Source of the DNA: SAR86 cluster bacterium SAR86E
GTDB lineage: Bacteria; Pseudomonadota; Gammaproteobacteria; Magnimaribacterales; D2472
DNA: 64,000 bases
Direction of reading: 5' to 3'
Assembly: GCA_000307935.1 (NCBI GenBank)
Contig: AMWX01000001.1
Location: 244,041 to 308,040 of the forward strand
Made by a program: the position numbers and the translations under genes. Under the pieces are notes generated by a model. It was not told the DNA's origin. It saw only the letters and a program-made list of their open reading frames with translations, and did no database searches. This document shows, piece after piece, positions 3-50,486 of this stretch; position 1 is the stretch's first letter; every line of letters starts with the position of its first letter.

Positions 3-1409
3 AGTGGCAATCATCTTAATGCTGTGGAATTTATGACTGATACTCATCCAATTAGAAATTATAGGGAAGCTACAGATTACATTAAAAGAGTAAAAAAATT
101 TAATAGGGCCGCAAAAGAAGATCTTATCTGGCTAAATGAGCAGAAACAATTAGATATTTTTGCCCCCAAATTTGTTTTTGATCACGTTATTAGACAGCTG
201 GAAGAATTAATATCTTATCAAGATTCTGAAAATCCGTTAATGCAAGTCTTTAATAGAAAGTTAAATAAATTAGATATTTCAATCAAGCAAAAGGAAAGCT
301 TGATTACTAAATTAAGCAAAACAATTGAACATGATGTTAAGCCAGGATATCAACTCATTCTGGAATATATGAAAGCAAATTATAAAAATGCAAATGAATA
401 CCATGGCGTATGGTCACTTCCAAATGGAGAAGCATTCTACGCATCTCAATTAAAAGCTTATACAACAACTGATTTTACCGCTGAAGAAATTCATCAAATT
501 GGCCTTTCAGAAGTTGAAAGAATCGGCAAAAGAATGGGAGAGATATTTACAGCTCTTGGATATGAAGTTAATAAACCTATTGGCCAAATGATGAATGATT
601 TAAATGAAAATTCAGATTTTTTGTATGCAGATACACCGGATAGAAAAACAATTGTTATTGCAGATTATAATCAAATGGTTAAAGAGGCTGAAGAAGATGT
701 CAAACCATATTTTGAAAGATTTCCAATAAGCCCAGTTGAGGTAAGAGCCGTACCAGAATATTCTGAAAAGACTGCTGCAGGTGGCTATTATCAAGCTCCT
801 AGCTTGGATGGATCTCGTCCAGGTGTTTTTTATGCAAATTTATATGATATTAAGCAGACGCCAACATTTGGCATGAGAACACTTACATTTCATGAAGCTG
901 TTCCGGGGCATCATTTTCAAATAGCTCTTAACCTTGAGAATGATGATCTAACCCTATATAGAAAAATGGGCTACAGAACTTCAGCCTTTACCGAAGGTTG
1001 GGCATTGTATTCAGAACAATTAGCCGTTGAGGCAGGTATGACAAAAAATTTATATGACGAACTGGGTGTTCTTCAGAGTGAGATGTTTAGAGCCAATAGA
1101 TTAGTGGTTGATACTGGTATGCATCATAAAAAATGGACCAGAGAAAAAGCCATGGAGTATATGAAAGAAACTACAGGCATGTCTGATACTGAAGTAAGAG
1201 TTGAAATTGAGAGATATATAGTGTGGCCTGGTCAAGCAACGAGCTATAAAATTGGAATGTTAAAAATATTAGAATTAAGAGAAAAAGCAAAAGATGCTCT
1301 CAATGAAAAGTTCGATATTAAAAAATTTCACACTATAGTCTTAGACCAAGGTATAGTCCCTCTTTTTGTTTTAGAGGATGTGATTAATAATTGGATTGAT
1401 TCACACTAA
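3..1409 (+). CDS. DUF885 family protein (metallopeptidase-like), N-terminus probably cut by the window edge
   Basis: The frame is open from position 3 with no upstream stop; the GTG at 24 is only the first possible start. It carries the HEAVPGHH motif and an overall pattern typical of DUF885, as I remember the family. Confidence 0.7.
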   Translation, partial: SGNHLNAVEFMTDTHPIRNYREATDYIKRVKKFNRAAKEDLIWLNEQKQLDIFAPKFVFDHVIRQLEELISYQDSENPLMQVFNRKLNKLDISIKQKESLITKLSKTIEHDVKPGYQLILEYMKANYKNANEYHGVWSLPNGEAFYASQLKAYTTTDFTAEEIHQIGLSEVERIGKRMGEIFTALGYEVNKPIGQMMNDLNENSDFLYADTPDRKTIVIADYNQMVKEAEEDVKPYFERFPISPVEVRAVPEYSEKTAAGGYYQAPSLDGSRPGVFYANLYDIKQTPTFGMRTLTFHEAVPGHHFQIALNLENDDLTLYRKMGYRTSAFTEGWALYSEQLAVEAGMTKNLYDELGVLQSEMFRANRLVVDTGMHHKKWTREKAMEYMKETTGMSDTEVRVEIERYIVWPGQATSYKIGMLKILELREKAKDALNEKFDIKKFHTIVLDQGIVPLFVLEDVINNWIDSH

Positions 1410-1981
1410 TATTTCTTAACAAGAATTGGCCTTAAAAAAGTTGCCAAACCAATAAATACAATGGCAGTTCCAAGAATATCACCAACAATGAATCTTATGA
1501 CCTGAATAATGCTAGCGTCTATTGCTGAAAAGAAGTTAATATTCATTGTTGATAAATAAAAATTAACAAAAAGGCCATTAAAAACAGCTGACAAGATTGT
1601 AATTAACGCAATGTGCTTATAATTTCTTTTATTTAAAGGACTGGTATTGGTATTACCTAATTTGAGGTCTAGAGTATTTAATAAACCCAAAGCCAACGAA
1701 ACAGAGATAACACTCATCAGGGATGGAAATAAAACATTAAAGTTATACACTTCTGGTGCGATAAACATTGGGCCCCAAATTTCAGCAAGATACAACCCAG
1801 GAATCGCCCTCCATCCAAAGTAAACAATGCAAAGAACTCTTGCAGCATGAGGAAAATAAATTAAGCTTGCAAGCCAATTAGGCAATAAAGATGTTTGTAC
1901 GCTAAAAAATGACCAAATAATCCACAAGGTTGAGGAGAATAGAAATGCTGTACTAGAAACAATGAAAAAATGCTTCATCAA
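1406..1981 (-). CDS. Multi-pass membrane protein, paralog 2 of a tandem pair (unknown family)
   Basis: 191 aa, hydrophobic throughout (about 6 TM segments). It shares long identical strings with the adjacent ORF: PHAARVLCIVYFG, AIPGLYLAE, SPLNKRNYKHIALITI. The ATG at 1978 shares one base with the upstream stop (TGATG). Confidence 0.75.
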   Translation of the reverse strand: MMKHFFIVSSTAFLFSSTLWIIWSFFSVQTSLLPNWLASLIYFPHAARVLCIVYFGWRAIPGLYLAEIWGPMFIAPEVYNFNVLFPSLMSVISVSLALGLLNTLDLKLGNTNTSPLNKRNYKHIALITILSAVFNGLFVNFYLSTMNINFFSAIDASIIQVIRFIVGDILGTAIVFIGLATFLRPILVKKY

Positions 1982-2556
1982 GAAGGGTTAATTTTATTAT
2001 TTCGAACAAACAAAGGTTTAAGTATTACTGCCAAAACAATAAATACAAGTGTGGTTCCAATAATATCTCCCATAAAAAAAGTTAACACATCGTTAAGATT
2101 TTGCGATGTTGTTATGGATGAGCCCTCAACATACAAATTCACTAAGAAGGAATTAAATACAGCAGAGATTATAGTAATGAGAGCTATATGCTTATAGTTT
2201 CTTTTATTAAGCGGGCTCTCGATGTTTCTACCCAATTTAAAGCCTAAAAGAGCCAATGTTTCTAGTGCCAAAGGTACAGATAAAACACTTATTAAAGGAG
2301 TGAGCAATGGCTCAATACCATATGCACCTGGGATAACATATAGGGGACCCCAAAGCTCAGCTAAATAGAGACCTGGAATTGCTTTATAACCAAAGTAAAC
2401 GATGCACAAAACTCTTGCAGCATGAGGCAGATAAAATAAGCTAGGAAATAAATCAGATAAGGAATTAGCATCAAAATTTAAAAAGAAAAACCAAATGATC
2501 CACAGGGTAACGGACAATACAAAGGATGAAAAAGTGACGGTCAGGAAATCTTTCAA
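1978..2556 (-). CDS. Multi-pass membrane protein, paralog 1 of a tandem pair (unknown family)
   Basis: 192 aa, same architecture as 1406-1981 and roughly half identical to it by eye. It lies 11 nt downstream of the small wHTH gene. Confidence 0.75.
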   Translation of the reverse strand: MKDFLTVTFSSFVLSVTLWIIWFFFLNFDANSLSDLFPSLFYLPHAARVLCIVYFGYKAIPGLYLAELWGPLYVIPGAYGIEPLLTPLISVLSVPLALETLALLGFKLGRNIESPLNKRNYKHIALITIISAVFNSFLVNLYVEGSSITTSQNLNDVLTFFMGDIIGTTLVFIVLAVILKPLFVRNNKINPS

Positions 2557-2567
2557 TGTATAGGAAA

Positions 2568-2864
2568 TTAAGAAAGACTATTTAAAATGACTAATGATTC
2601 ACGCTTATCAGTTGGAGATTGCTCAAGGTCAATAATGCCTTCTCCTGAGAGTTTTTTAAGAGTTTTGTATACAGTTGACCTAGACATGCCTGAGTTTTCA
2701 ACAATATCTGTGATATTTACGGAACGATCATGTTCGTGGGACTGAGTAATAATTGTATGGAATACTTTAAGTTCATTCGGTGTGAAATGCTTCAGGTTCA
2801 AGTCTTGCTCTAAGCCATAGAGCATTGATAAGGCATCATAAATATTTCTATAAAACTTACTCAT
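2568..2864 (-). CDS. Small winged-helix DNA-binding protein (MarR/ArsR-like)
   Basis: 98 aa. The segment ITDIVENSGMSRSTVYKTLKKLSGEGIIDLEQSPTDKRE reads as HTH plus wing. It is the first gene of the three-gene minus-strand unit. Confidence 0.6.
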   Translation of the reverse strand: MSKFYRNIYDALSMLYGLEQDLNLKHFTPNELKVFHTIITQSHEHDRSVNITDIVENSGMSRSTVYKTLKKLSGEGIIDLEQSPTDKRESLVILNSLS

Positions 2865-2925
2865 AACTACAAATTGATTTATTTAATTTATTCTGTCATA
2901 AATATTTGTAAATAGCATCCTAAAT

Positions 2926-3015
2926 TGGCGGAGAGACGGGGATTCGAACCCCGGAACCAGTTGCCCAGTTACTACCTTTCCAAGGTAGCGCAATCGACCA
3001 CTCTGCCATCTCTCC
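2926..3015 (-). tRNA. tRNA-Ser (anticodon GGA)
   Basis: Cloverleaf folded by hand on the minus strand. Acceptor GGAGAGA/TCTCTCC plus G plus an encoded CCA. Anticodon stem CTACC/GGTAG with loop TTGGAAA. Long variable arm. T arm GGGGTTCGAATCCCC. Confidence 0.9.
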
Positions 3016-3049: not shown

Positions 3050-5515
3050 CTAAGAATCTCTCAAAGTGATCATGGGTGAGGCATAAATGCTTTTTCTAAT
3101 TGACATTACGCCTGCGATAAATATGAAACTAACACCAAACAAATAACTCAACCCCAAGATTGATAAATTTGGTGAATAAATTAGATCTAGAAATTGAATA
3201 AAAATTACTGACGACAAAGCTATAGAAAATATAATTGCTGTTGTTGCAGATAATAGTCCCAAAATTAAGAACTCTGATGCTGCTGATTTAAAGATTAGCG
3301 CTCTACTAGCTCCGATGGCATGCATAATTGCTGCCTCTTTTGTTCGCTGATCTCTATTTGAATATATAGAAGCGACCAATGCTAAAATTCCTGCAATAAA
3401 TGTAAGAAAAAAAATATATTGCACAGCCAGTGAAGCGCTTGCTAAGGAGCTTTTACCTTGTTCAATAATTGCCTCTAAATCAACACTGGTAATTGTAGGA
3501 AAACGATTAGTGAAGTTGTTCATAAAGTTTTGAGAGTTTTCTAGCTTTATGCTCGTAATGTATGAATTAGGGAGCTCTCTACCTGCAGCTGGAGAAAGGA
3601 TAAAAAAGAAATTTGGAGAAAAGCTTTGCCATTCAATTTCTCTAAAGCTTGCAACAGAAACACTAAATATTTTTCCTCCAGCTGAAAAAGTTAGCTCATC
3701 ACCAATTTCCAGATTCATTGATTCTGCAATCTCTCGATCAATTGAAACTTCTGCAATCTCGTCACCGTTAATCCACCATTCCCCCTCTACCACTGAATTG
3801 CTCGGGGGTAATTGATTAAGCCAAGTTAGATTTGCCTCCCGCTGCATAAGATTATTGAAATTGAAATCTTCTGATCCAGGTCGAGCTGCTGATAAAAGTC
3901 TACCCCGAATTAAAGGAGTAAAATCCGGAACGATGATTCCTTGGTCTTTGAAATAATTAGAAATGGGCTCTAGGTTGTATTGTTGAATATTAAATAAAAA
4001 ATAATTTGGGGTATCTTCATCTAAGGTTTCGCTCCATGAATCCACTAAATCCGTTCTTGTTTCTGCAAGTGCTACAAGAAATAATAATGAAAGCCCAAAT
4101 ATAATTATCTGTAAAATACTATCATTTCCTCGCTGAACTATATTTTTAAGACCTAATTTCCAACCTTTTTGATTAGAAAATTTCATTTTGGAAAGAGCAT
4201 AAATCAACAGCCTGCCTATTAAATATAAAGAGGAAGTAACTAAGATTAAGGAAATAACAATGTATATAATTAGTTTGATGTCTTGAAATAAAGCTCCTAG
4301 AAATCCAAACATTGTAAAAAAAGCAACAAGATAAATCATAAGGTTGCTTGATAGCTTGATTCTAAAGTCATTCCTTAAAATTCTTATAGGCTCAGTTTCA
4401 CTTAAGATCTTTATGTAGGGAGATGCTGTTGCAAATATTACAAATGAAGCTGTAATAAAGCCAAGAATTACTGGTCGAGATGACGAAGGTGGTAAATCAG
4501 TATTAACAATTCCTTGTAAGGTAGAGAGCAAAAGATGCTGCAGCCCATATCCAAAAATCAATCCCAGTGATGAAGCGAAGACAGCAACCAGTGTTAGTTG
4601 CATAACCTGGTGTCCCAAAATAAACGACTTCGAAGCTCCGAAAACTTTCATTAATGAAGTATGCAGAAGATTTCTGCTTGCATATCGTCTTACTGCCATC
4701 ATGGATGCAATAACAGAAATAATAATAGTGAAAAGGCTCGCTAGATTGAAAAAAGTTGTTGAATTAGCTATATCTTCTCCAAGATTATCTCCCACGTCCA
4801 ATGCATTTTGAACTCTTATACTGGCTGGAATGTCTTCTAATATCGCTTCAAAACGATCCAGGTTTTCTTGAGTGCCTGAAAAAAGTTTTCTATAAATAAC
4901 CCTGCTACCGGTTTGAATTACACCCATTGCATCAACATCATCTATATTCACAATTACGATTGGATAAAACCCAACAAAGCTAGAGTTTCTATCAGGATAA
5001 TCTTCAATAATGCCTTCAACTATAAAATTTTTATTACCAATAGAAACTTCATCAAGCTGTTTTAACCCAAGGGCTTCAGAAACCTTACTCTCTATCCAGA
5101 TATTGCCAGGCTCAGGTGACCCGAGATGCTTTATTATGGCTCCCTTAAAATCAACAATCTTCAATTCACCTCTTAATGGATATGATTCAGTAACAGCTTT
5201 AATGGATGCAAGCAGAGTATCATCCTCTGTTATTATCATGCTCAAAAATGTAGACATCTCGGCAGAATCAAGGTCATTTGCAGCAGCTAAGTCCAAATAT
5301 TTAGAATCTATTTTAGATGCTGATCGTAATACAAGATCTGCTCCTAAAATGCTTGAAGCCTGCATTTGCATCGATGACTGAAGCCTATCTCCTAAAAATC
5401 CAACACTTGAGATCGATGTGACAGCTAAAACAATTGATAAAAATAATATTAACAAATCACCACTAAAAACTTCAGACCAAAATCTCTTTAAGCCATACAA
5501 AAGGCCTCTAATCAC
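3050..5515 (-). CDS. ybbP: FtsX-family ABC transporter permease, YbbP-like (two permease modules)
   Basis: 821 aa with two blocks of TM helices separated by large soluble loops. It overlaps the upstream ABC ATPase by 4 nt. The synteny tesA<>ybbA-ybbP matches E. coli. Confidence 0.8.
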   Translation of the reverse strand: MIRGLLYGLKRFWSEVFSGDLLILFLSIVLAVTSISSVGFLGDRLQSSMQMQASSILGADLVLRSASKIDSKYLDLAAANDLDSAEMSTFLSMIITEDDTLLASIKAVTESYPLRGELKIVDFKGAIIKHLGSPEPGNIWIESKVSEALGLKQLDEVSIGNKNFIVEGIIEDYPDRNSSFVGFYPIVIVNIDDVDAMGVIQTGSRVIYRKLFSGTQENLDRFEAILEDIPASIRVQNALDVGDNLGEDIANSTTFFNLASLFTIIISVIASMMAVRRYASRNLLHTSLMKVFGASKSFILGHQVMQLTLVAVFASSLGLIFGYGLQHLLLSTLQGIVNTDLPPSSSRPVILGFITASFVIFATASPYIKILSETEPIRILRNDFRIKLSSNLMIYLVAFFTMFGFLGALFQDIKLIIYIVISLILVTSSLYLIGRLLIYALSKMKFSNQKGWKLGLKNIVQRGNDSILQIIIFGLSLLFLVALAETRTDLVDSWSETLDEDTPNYFLFNIQQYNLEPISNYFKDQGIIVPDFTPLIRGRLLSAARPGSEDFNFNNLMQREANLTWLNQLPPSNSVVEGEWWINGDEIAEVSIDREIAESMNLEIGDELTFSAGGKIFSVSVASFREIEWQSFSPNFFFILSPAAGRELPNSYITSIKLENSQNFMNNFTNRFPTITSVDLEAIIEQGKSSLASASLAVQYIFFLTFIAGILALVASIYSNRDQRTKEAAIMHAIGASRALIFKSAASEFLILGLLSATTAIIFSIALSSVIFIQFLDLIYSPNLSILGLSYLFGVSFIFIAGVMSIRKSIYASPMITLRDS

Positions 5516-6180
5516 AATAATTGCCCTTCTGAGAGTTCATAAACTTCATCACATTTCTCTGCTAAAGATAAATCATGAGTTACTAGAACTAAGGTTGTTT
5601 GAATAAGTTCATTGAGTGAAAATATAAGATCGGTAATAGAGCCTGAGCTCTTTTTATCTAGGTTCCCTGTTGGTTCATCTGCAAATAATATTTTTGGCTT
5701 ATTAACAATAGATCTTGCTATAGCAACTCTCTGCTTTTCACCGCCACTGAGTTGAGACGCAAAATGCTTAGCTCTTTTTGAGAGTCCAACTTGATTTAGA
5801 GCTTCGTATGCTTTATCGGCTGAATTTGGATCTCCGGATATTTCAAGCGGTAACATAACATTATCAAGAGCTGTCAATCTTGGCATTAAATGAAAAGATT
5901 GAAATACAAAGCCAACATCCTTACCTCTGATTTGAGCTCTCTTGTCCTCATCCAGGCTTGTAATTTGAGATCCAAGCAATCTAACAGTTCCAGCAGTTGG
6001 CAAATCAAGCCCCGCCATTATAGCTAAAAGTGTAGTTTTGCCAGAACCAGATGGCCCAACCAGAGATATTGGTTTGCCTTGTTTAACCGATAAATTTATA
6101 TCCCTAACTATTGTCAAAGTACCCTCAGGACTGTTAACTTCCTTAGTTATGTTCTCAACCTTTAAAATGCAATCTTTCAA
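5512..6180 (-). CDS. ybbA: ABC transporter ATP-binding protein, YbbA/LolD-like
   Basis: Walker A GPSGSGKTT, signature LSGGEKQR, Walker B ILFADEPTG. TTG start at 6180. Confidence 0.85.
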   Translation of the reverse strand: MKDCILKVENITKEVNSPEGTLTIVRDINLSVKQGKPISLVGPSGSGKTTLLAIMAGLDLPTAGTVRLLGSQITSLDEDKRAQIRGKDVGFVFQSFHLMPRLTALDNVMLPLEISGDPNSADKAYEALNQVGLSKRAKHFASQLSGGEKQRVAIARSIVNKPKILFADEPTGNLDKKSSGSITDLIFSLNELIQTTLVLVTHDLSLAEKCDEVYELSEGQLL

Positions 6181-6814
6181 AATATCCTTGTTTATTTTTT
6201 TACTTATTTTACTGGCAGTTCCAACCCCAGTAAATTCATTTGAATTAGGTATTCAAATTGATAATAAGATAGTGATATTGGGTGACAGTCTTAGCGCTGG
6301 ATATGGTGTGAGTATTGATGAATCATGGCCCTCCCTTCTGCAAAAAAGAATGCGTGATGAAAACCATAATATTTCAATAATTAATGCAGGAATAAGCGGA
6401 GACACAACATCAGGTGGATTGTACAGACTTCCTGAATTACTGAATAATCATAATCCAAGCCTGGTTATATTAGAGCTAGGTGGTAATGATGGATTGCGTG
6501 GTATGTCTATTAAAAATGTGATTAAAAAAAATTTAATTTCAATGATTGAGTTAATTCAAAGCAGTAACTCAAACTTAGTTTTAATAGGTGTTGAGCTGCC
6601 CCCTAATTATGGACAAATTTATACAAATCAATTTAAAAAAATGTACTCTGATTTGGCTCAAACATATGATGTGGCTTTGGTAAATGGCTCTCTGGTTAAA
6701 ATGGTTGAGATGAATTTAATGCAGGCAGACGGAATTCATCCCAACCCTGAGGGTCACAAGATGATAGAGCATGAAGTCAGCCAAGTAGTCATTCCAATTA
6801 TTCAATCAAATTAA
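6167..6814 (+). CDS. tesA: SGNH/GDSL arylesterase / acyl-CoA thioesterase I
   Basis: SGNH blocks GDSLSAGYG, GGNDG and DGIHP. A signal-peptide-like segment follows the ATG at 6167. The longer ORF from 6038 would run through ybbA, so the internal ATG (6167, or 6149) is preferred. Confidence 0.85.
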   Translation: MQSFKISLFIFLLILLAVPTPVNSFELGIQIDNKIVILGDSLSAGYGVSIDESWPSLLQKRMRDENHNISIINAGISGDTTSGGLYRLPELLNNHNPSLVILELGGNDGLRGMSIKNVIKKNLISMIELIQSSNSNLVLIGVELPPNYGQIYTNQFKKMYSDLAQTYDVALVNGSLVKMVEMNLMQADGIHPNPEGHKMIEHEVSQVVIPIIQSN

Positions 6815-50266: not shown

Positions 50267-50486
50267 AAAAAAAAACAGAGCTAGGCTCTGTCTTTTCAGT
50301 TCGAGATTGGAAGGGGTCTAAAGTGAGAATCTCTTTAGCTCCTTGAAGGCTTTCTCTTTCCTTCTTGGTGGGTTACTAAGCTCTTTTTTATCGTCGACTC
50401 TTAGTATCGCTTTCGCCCTTCGTCTCTACCTTCTCTTTCTCTCTTACTCCCGTCTGCAGTTGTTTGTAAGTCGGTCCGAGTTGGTC
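50267..50486 (-). ncRNA. Candidate orphan small RNA (about 220 nt, purine-rich), family not recognised
   Basis: It is bounded by a near-consensus sigma70 promoter and a strong terminator on the minus strand. It has no ATG and no ORF. Its composition is clearly less AT-rich than the flanks and is strongly A/G-biased. Local hairpins and repeated AAGAG motifs are present. Confidence 0.5.
50275..50291. terminator. Bidirectional hairpin terminator, much stronger on the minus strand
   Basis: ACAGAGC-tag-GCTCTGT. On the minus strand it is followed by nine T; on the plus strand by CTTTT. Confidence 0.75.

Follow-up and report, generated by a model that had tools for sequence, protein, structure and literature searches.

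MASE1 is a widespread domain that serves bacterial histidine kinases and cyclic diguanylate (c-di-GMP) enzymes as their membrane input. Between 8 and 10 transmembrane (TM) segments have been described for it (PMC6510439), and its way of sensing and passing on signals is still poorly understood (PMC6510439, PMC3718329). "Stand-alone" MASE1 domains have been reported from ~20 genera (PMC3718329), and a "MASE1 domain-containing protein" of 178 amino acids (aa) has been named in Mycobacterium intracellulare (bioRxiv 10.1101/2025.04.09.647911). In the literature that was searchable, neither a dedicated winged-helix partner for stand-alone MASE1 proteins nor a half-domain family of ~190 aa is described. 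Here, a stretch of 64,000 nucleotides (nt) from SAR86 cluster bacterium SAR86E (AMWX01000001.1, positions 244,041-308,040; hereafter, the window) was analyzed, in which a gene for a 98-aa winged helix-turn-helix (wHTH) protein is followed by two genes for membrane proteins of ~190 aa, memA and memB. Comparison with related loci indicates that this unit is very probably one representative of a conserved pair, in which a minimal MarR-type protein (mini-MarR) is encoded beside a truncated MASE1 protein.

The pair differs in several respects from the systems that resemble it most. Compared with the MASE1 proteins UhpB, DgcE, PdeF (YfgF) and PdeA, the membrane family appears to cover only positions ~3-175 of the 299 in the domain model, carries no output domain and comes with an obligate, separate wHTH gene. 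Like the stand-alone MASE1 proteins, with which it was compared by description only, the SAR86 family would be MASE1 without an output domain. The closest described analogue in working is found in Streptococcus mutans, where the HdrRM and BrsRM operons each combine a small DNA-binding regulator with a transmembrane inhibitor and are autoregulated via promoter repeats (PMC6193735). These LytTR systems follow the same logic as the module proposed here for SAR86, but the protein families are unrelated (LytTR, and an inhibitor that is not MASE1), and inhibition is experimental there, whereas it is inferred for the SAR86 module.

A small MarR-type gene linked to a membrane gene

In order to compare the unit with its relatives, homologous loci were taken from SAR86 genomes (L001-L010), from contigs with distant homologues (L011-L018 and L023-L027) and from a metagenome scan with a 10-sequence alignment as the query (L028-L107), which returned membrane proteins 31-58% identical to memB. 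Linkage was testable in 85 loci, those in which the membrane gene has 300 nt or more of upstream sequence. An earlier note on this DNA, made from its letters alone, had let its proposal stand or fall with conserved linkage of the two gene types, and this linkage is the strongest result of the analysis: a wHTH homologue adjoins the membrane gene in 85 of 85 loci. In 83 of them it lies directly upstream on the same strand, with gaps ranging from an overlap to 106 nt, and at L015 and L016 it lies immediately downstream in convergent orientation. For four apparent exceptions (L009, L027, L093 and L099), the wHTH gene was located by tblastn. The small proteins encoded beside the most distant membrane homologues, which are 25-30% identical to memB, are homologous to the wHTH protein of the window and to one another, and no third conserved gene was seen beside the pair at the distant loci outside SAR86. 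The earlier note had proposed to test whether the wHTH gene always co-occurs with a duplicated membrane gene; it does so with the membrane gene itself, but not with its duplication, as most relatives have a single copy.

The small protein had been read as a winged-helix protein, and this reading stands. It exceeds the Pfam cut-offs of three related families, namely TrmB (PF01978, 33.5 bits against 25.6), MarR (PF01047, 32.6 against 24.6) and MarR_2 (PF12802, 30.2 against 27), and NCBI and JGI list its homologues as "MarR family transcriptional regulator". An AlphaFold2 model built from an alignment of database sequences (predicted local distance difference test, pLDDT, 88.3) consists of helices at residues 3-21, 29-44, 51-58 and 62-74 and strands at 48-50, 78-82 and 90-94. 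All of the top 50 Foldseek matches in the PDB were MarR-family or MarR-like (SarA) proteins, with E-values of 3e-5 to 6e-4, a probability of 1.0, query TM-scores (TMq) of 0.54-0.63 and target TM-scores (TMt) of 0.33-0.52; they include ScoC/Hpr, PefR, AbfR, MftR, SlyA and MexR. The protein thus resembles these regulators in both profile and fold, and it differs from them in length. Its 98 residues align to only the N-terminal ~95-105 residues of solved MarR proteins, which mostly have 131-180 aa, and it ends after the β-hairpin of the wing, the second strand of which stops at residue 94, four residues before the C-terminus. Missing are the C-terminal helices that provide the dimer interface and ligand pocket of MarR proteins (typically ~140-150 aa). 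According to the model, the protein is a minimal MarR-type core comprising the N-terminal helix, the wHTH and the wing. Since the C-terminal helices are absent, a partner, and not a small ligand, would be expected to set its activity.

Membrane family and its relation to MASE1

The earlier note could not assign the membrane proteins to any family, which no longer holds at the level of the family as a whole. An exhaustive phmmer search of 1.84 billion representative proteins (E <= 1e-3) yielded 70 homologues, all of them at most 227 aa long and without an extra domain, and the full-length members mostly measure 183-203 aa. In an alignment of 43 full-length members, P44, G167 and G171 are invariant and R48 and D168 nearly so, and the motifs (Y/F)LPH(G/A)xRVL, FGW(R/K)xxPG, SxxxN and GDxxG can be read by eye; memA keeps LPHAARVL, SxxxN and GDxxG. 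When these members were scanned against Pfam, MASE1 (PF05231, gathering cut-off 29.8 bits) was the one recurrent family, matched by 16 of the 43 with a best E-value of 2e-8. The matches are collinear and always fall at model positions ~3-178 of 299. Two scores exceed the cut-off over positions 3-175, that of the hidden Markov model consensus of the family (33.7 bits) and that of the homologue P0229 (32.9 bits); the other matching members score 22-28 bits, below the cut-off. Both P0229 and a second homologue, P0169, carry precomputed PF05231 annotations, and memB is 28% identical to P0229 (E = 2e-10).

Comparison with individual MASE1 proteins points in the same direction. Residues 2-140 of memB give a faint, in-register match (E = 0.74) to positions 2-128 of the NCBIfam UhpB model, the N-terminal region in which we take the MASE1 domain of UhpB to lie. 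With hhalign, the alignment of the 43 members matched an alignment of the N-termini of E. coli UhpB, DgcE, PdeF and PdeA over its first half only (columns 44-177 of 345, P = 1.2e-4, probability 55%), and the C-terminal half of these E. coli domains went unmatched. By our own reading, LPHGxR(V/I)L, FGW(R/K)xxPG and GDxxG are placed like motifs of the E. coli MASE1 proteins. A full MASE1 domain comprises ~300 aa with 8-10 TM segments, and the family proteins have 185-200 aa and five long predicted helices. Fusion to a cytoplasmic output domain (histidine kinase, GGDEF/EAL or PAS) was found in none of the representatives, 70 of 70 of which are stand-alone. As both the full length and the output fusion are lacking, the family cannot be filed as canonical MASE1. 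From these sequence comparisons we conclude that it is a divergent, shortened and always stand-alone branch of MASE1 that would correspond to roughly the first five helices. The idea that memA and memB are the two halves of one full MASE1 domain was rejected, as both match the N-terminal half only and hhalign found no similarity to the C-terminal half.

An AlphaFold2 model of memB, built on the 43-sequence alignment (pLDDT 92.8, predicted TM-score 0.89), contains five long helices at residues 2-30, 44-74, 81-103, 121-145 and 158-190. The "6-TM" label of the earlier note is therefore approximate, its polytopic character standing and its helix count less so. Helix 2, with 31 residues, conserved G56, P61 and G62 and K or R at position 58, may be kinked or re-entrant, for five or six passes in total. 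Counts of lysine plus arginine (K+R) are biased, 1 against 8 in memA and 1 against 7 in memB, and across the family these counts assign the 104-122 loop and the C-terminal tail to the cytoplasm. Some distant members have lysine-rich N-termini, consistent with an even count of passes through the membrane. An antiparallel (dual-topology, EmrE-type) pair of memA and memB was excluded, because the same K+R bias means the same orientation. The predicted topology adds to the likeness with MASE1: both are polytopic inner-membrane proteins, and the basic cytoplasmic loop and tail of the family follow a helix matching TM5 of YfgF (PMC3718329). The GDxxG helix aligns to a PdeF (YfgF) helix ending near residue 198, just before the cytoplasmic TM5-6 loop that holds the KKE motif at residues 213-215. 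This motif, in the loop after TM5, is needed for the MASE1 domain of YfgF to work (PMC3718329).

The three genes form one co-directional unit, and the coordinates, the 11-nt gap between the wHTH stop and memA, and the TGATG junction given for it were all reproduced. So was the paralogy of the membrane proteins, which are 52% identical over 190 aa (BLASTP, E = 3e-64) and share the four identical blocks quoted for them, PHAARVLCIVYFG, AIPGLYLAE, WGP and SPLNKRNYKHIALITI. At the DNA level the duplication can be recognized as direct repeats of 112 nt and 56 nt, 76-77% identical and spaced 575-587 nt apart. The junction reads CCTTCTTGATGAAGCAT (...CCT TCT TGA TG AAG CAT...), with one A common to the TGA stop and the ATG start, implying that memA and memB are translationally coupled. 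The open reading frame of memB is listed as 1406-1981 (191 aa); the true start is likely the ATG at 1978-1976, giving 190 aa and the N-terminus MKHFF.

At most loci the membrane gene is single-copy, and paralogue pairs occur in three separate lineages. A tandem pair is found in the window, in the near-identical strain L108 and in L017 (52% identity between copies), another in the clade of L089, L090, L093, L098 and L105 (42%), and the third case, in L011-L014 and L027, consists of two full wHTH and membrane pairs arranged tail to tail in convergent orientation (38% between the membrane copies). In each lineage the paralogues are closer to each other than to the proteins of other lineages. Pairing has thus arisen at least three times. 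In two of these cases the genes stand in tandem, and the stop codon of one overlaps the start codon of the next (TGATG in the window, TTGA in L017, and ATGA in L090, L093 and L105). In both tandem lineages it is the copy nearer the promoter that has diverged more. In the third lineage the whole pair was duplicated, each L011-L014 membrane paralogue having its own divergent wHTH paralogue. This double pair, at L011 3810-5726 and also in L012-L014 and L027, belongs to a G+C-richer marine bacterium. In L093, the wHTH homologue upstream of the tandem membrane pair contains an in-frame TGA (1155-1427), either a sequencing error or the mark of a decaying regulator.

Relative to the single-copy SAR86 orthologues, memA is 49-56% and memB 54-62% identical, and in a neighbour-joining tree memB joins the single-copy orthologues from the closest genomes, memA standing on a branch of its own. 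By these sequence comparisons memB is the orthologue of the single-copy SAR86 gene. The tree fits an origin of memA by duplication in place as well as by acquisition from another SAR86 subclade. Compared with the near-identical strain L108, which has the same layout, dN/dS is 0.10 for the wHTH gene, 0.13 for memA and 0.43 for memB, against 0.035 for the neighbouring DUF885 gene, values that are rough given the few substitutions. They indicate that memA and memB are both functional genes under purifying selection. Across the SAR86 genomes (L001-L010), identities are 49-62% for the membrane protein, 63-73% for the wHTH protein and 80-93% for most intact flanking proteins (DUF885 and ATP-binding cassette, ABC), the ABC permease being 68-77% identical in three genomes. 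The rate of evolution of the module is much higher than that of the housekeeping genes around it. An oligomeric protein would be expected to retain co-translated paralogues time and again. The heteromeric membrane complex envisaged in the earlier note is accordingly plausible in view of translational coupling, purifying selection and recurrent pairing, with the oligomerisation itself an assumption.

A possible split sensory module and its alternatives

Our tentative reading, to which we give slightly less than an even chance, takes the unit as a sensory module that is split and autoregulated, the mini-MarR being controlled by a dimer of the truncated MASE1 protein. The membrane protein would be an oligomer, probably a dimer, that perceives a membrane or periplasmic cue. 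In line with the membrane sequestration considered in the earlier note, its basic cytoplasmic loop (residues ~104-122) and C-terminal tail would bind or release the mini-MarR, which would repress or activate the promoter of its own operon beside tRNA-Ser and possibly other targets, and the module as a whole would be a split "one-component" system. Here and in a few relatives, the homo-oligomer would most likely have been turned into a memA/memB hetero-oligomer by coupled tandem duplication. This reading draws on the strict linkage, on the duplication of the whole pair, on a wHTH protein without an effector region and on MASE1 input working through partners. UhpB works with another membrane protein, UhpC, and the uhpB and uhpC genes are adjacent. 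The MASE1 domain of DgcE binds the GTPase RdcA (PMC6510439). We infer oligomerisation and contact between the wHTH and membrane proteins, and likewise which way control runs, that the operon is autoregulated and what kind of signal it answers to. An extension of the reading, namely that stand-alone half-MASE1 homo- or heterodimers gating a minimal MarR by reversible membrane capture form an undescribed class fixed in SAR86, seems to us rather doubtful. Such a half-domain might, in addition, be structurally an S-component-like module for binding small molecules.

MarR proteins bind palindromic operators as dimers, usually in their own promoter region. Autoregulation of the operon is plausible from the 61-nt spacer between the tRNA and wHTH genes, which holds a sigma-70-like promoter candidate (Table 1); several other SAR86 loci have a GTGACA...TAAAGT element at the matching position. 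The perfect inverted repeat that surrounds the promoter candidate is a possible, weakly supported operator. Clade-specific inverted repeats, likewise candidate operators, lie ~15-60 nt upstream of the wHTH start in two further groups of loci, AACTATG-N12-CATAGTT in six (L066, L069, L071, L073, L104 and L107) and TTAAATT-N10-AATTTAA in four (L062, L092, L095 and L100). Upstream of the module, Rfam returned no riboswitch or other RNA apart from the tRNA, and no terminator-like site was seen in the spacer between the tRNA and the wHTH gene. As a separate observation, a 12-nt sequence (AAATATTTATGA when read on the minus strand), which contains the palindrome AAATATTT, is repeated exactly and in direct orientation at 2836-2861 and 2896-2921, at a spacing of 60 nt. 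One of the two overlaps the promoter-like site, the other falls within wHTH codons 6-11; the repeat is not conserved in L017.

Several results weigh against the sensory-module reading. Neither memA nor memB has a Pfam match above threshold or a significant NCBIfam match, and no MASE1 match appeared for them even at E <= 10, so that the profile match to a characterized family, which the earlier note had named as contrary to its proposal, exists for the family consensus and P0229 but not for the two proteins themselves. Their link to MASE1 is transitive, running via distant members and the family consensus in sequence comparisons. A wHTH-MASE1 fusion was found nowhere among the homology matches. 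The inverted repeats exceed shuffled controls by a small enrichment (mean best arm 4.8 against 4.2 nt), and the candidate operators differ between clades though the recognition helices are similar. Searches of the PDB by sequence and by fold returned no solved MASE1 structure. The closest structural neighbours suggested by the memB model are the S-components of energy-coupling factor (ECF) transporters, not sensors, which is a lead, not a result. Finally, polar residues within the helices (R48, N135 and D168, invariant or nearly so, and E or H at position 67) include three, R48, N135 and D168, that would suit a transporter as well.

The last two points belong to the main alternative, which we hold to be unlikely, that the unit is a local repressor with a small transporter, the membrane protein being an S-component-like or other permease or exporter and the mini-MarR its dedicated, possibly ligand-responsive repressor. 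MarR-type regulators commonly adjoin transport genes under their control, and the many MarR/efflux pairs are a precedent. The membrane proteins resemble ECF S-components (ThiT, FolT) in length (~180-190 aa) and in the arrangement of a helical bundle. In the Foldseek comparison of the memB model with the PDB, all six full-length matches among the top eight were ECF S-components (ThiT 4tkr and 3rlb; 5edl; 4huq_S), with TM-scores of 0.41-0.56, near 0.5, over 184-206 columns. These matches have E-values of 0.12-0.84, and no match was significant (none at E < 0.001). S-components have six helices against five in the memB model and show no sequence similarity to it: the family-profile search of PDB sequences gave no chain at E < 1, no S-component and no other transporter, and no Pfam match to BioY, ThiT or similar families was found for the membrane proteins or the 43 aligned members. 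The kinship that does emerge in sequence is with MASE1, a signalling input domain. A ligand-responsive repressor is also hard to reconcile with a 98-aa wHTH protein that lacks the MarR ligand-binding region. The neighbourhood contains no EcfT or EcfA, the adjacent ABC pair being of the FtsX-permease type, and no EcfT-like gene was seen at the distant loci.

A second alternative, which appears quite improbable, is that the two genes are co-regulated and functionally independent, the membrane protein having a scaffold or homeostasis role and the wHTH protein only regulating its own operon. The partnership of UhpB with UhpC could serve as a model for such a scaffold, and the fast evolution of the membrane protein (49-62% identity, against 80-93% for most intact flanking genes) is compatible with loose constraint. 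Linkage in every testable locus, maintained down to 25-30% membrane-protein identity, and the duplication of whole pairs speak for a specific partnership, and outside SAR86 the pair has no third conserved gene as a companion.

Chromosomal setting and meaning for SAR86

The module lies directly 3' of tRNA-Ser(GGA), as had been noted, and the window contains neither an integrase gene nor a repeat of the tRNA-Ser 3' end (no att repeat). A scan of one genome per species recovered the membrane protein in 10 SAR86-type genomes (L001-L010), of which 8 are titled SAR86 in their records and the others Gammaproteobacteria (contig SAR86-LRMED-352) and Pseudomonadota. All 10 share the order tRNA-Ser(GGA), wHTH gene, one membrane gene; in 7 a convergent DUF885 gene comes next after the membrane gene, and in 7 an ABC permease/ATPase pair lies on the other side of the module. 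Among 63 related loci that allow the test, 50 have the tRNA gene upstream of the wHTH gene at a distance of no more than 300 nt. The "classic variable-locus position" proposed earlier for this tRNA flank therefore does not describe it: the same order recurs in the 10 genomes and in most metagenomic relatives, the G+C content of the module (0.32-0.36) is that of its flanks, and what varies between genomes is copy number, not presence. The slot is conserved SAR86 core synteny and no variable island, its lineage-specific part being the extra membrane copy only, and tRNA-Ser(GGA) is context for the module, not an integration site. A reading as a tRNA-hotspot cassette, mobile or variable (defence, toxin-antitoxin or holin-like), could appeal to the tRNA adjacency, to one membrane gene present or absent between lineages and to a faint match of memB to a PHROG holin (E = 0.0075), but it is largely refuted and extremely improbable in the face of the conserved order (with DUF885 in 7 genomes), the ordinary G+C, the absence of an integrase, an att repeat or any PADLOC match for the membrane proteins, and dN/dS below 1.

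Table 1. Positions of the module, its junction, its candidate expression signals and the adjoining tRNA gene in the window
Feature	Position	Strand	Basis
wHTH gene, 98 aa	2568-2864	minus	Open reading frame (ORF) list
memA, ~190-aa membrane protein, promoter-proximal copy, 192 aa, TTG start	1978-2556	minus	ORF list
memB, distal membrane-protein copy	1406-1978	minus	ORF list
TGATG stop/start overlap, memA/memB	1976-1980	minus	Junction sequence read
Sigma-70-like promoter candidate, TTTACA, 16 nt, TAAATT	2885-2912	minus	Consensus scan
Candidate operator, perfect 7-nt inverted repeat TACAAAT/ATTTGTA, 29 nt apart, around promoter	2868-2910		Repeat search
tRNA-Ser(GGA), conserved upstream neighbour of module	2926-3015	minus	ARAGORN; Rfam tRNA, 57.5 bits

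The flanks in the window comprise the DUF885 protein gene (24-1409, plus strand), the 5' end of which is cut by the window edge, an FtsX-type ABC permease of 821 aa with its ATPase (3050-6180, minus strand) and a GDSL lipase gene (6038-6814, plus strand). This layout presumably corresponds to the ybbA-ybbP/tesA arrangement of E. coli, and we take the ABC pair to be YbbP/YbbA-like. Farther away, at 50291-50480 on the minus strand, the window contains a full-length IMES-1 RNA motif (Rfam RF02034, 197.9 bits against a gathering score of 81). We take IMES-1 to be the non-coding RNA whose first description came from marine metatranscriptomes; its setting here is a SAR86 genome.

The module would be less significant if it proved to be an ordinary couple of repressor and permease. 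By the family assignment given above, the first half of MASE1 exists here as an independent protein of ~190 aa with a 98-aa DNA-binding protein as its sole constant partner, the smallest conceivable context for the study of MASE1 function. The recurrent pairing of paralogues hints that the half-MASE1 unit works as a dimer, and a split system, if the sensory-module reading is correct, would offer a minimal, genetically separable model of MASE1 sensing and transmission. Few heterotrophic lineages of the surface ocean are as abundant as SAR86, and its streamlined genomes are poor in regulators. As the module is conserved at one position across this abundant group, the cue that it would sense is probably relevant to the ecology of SAR86.

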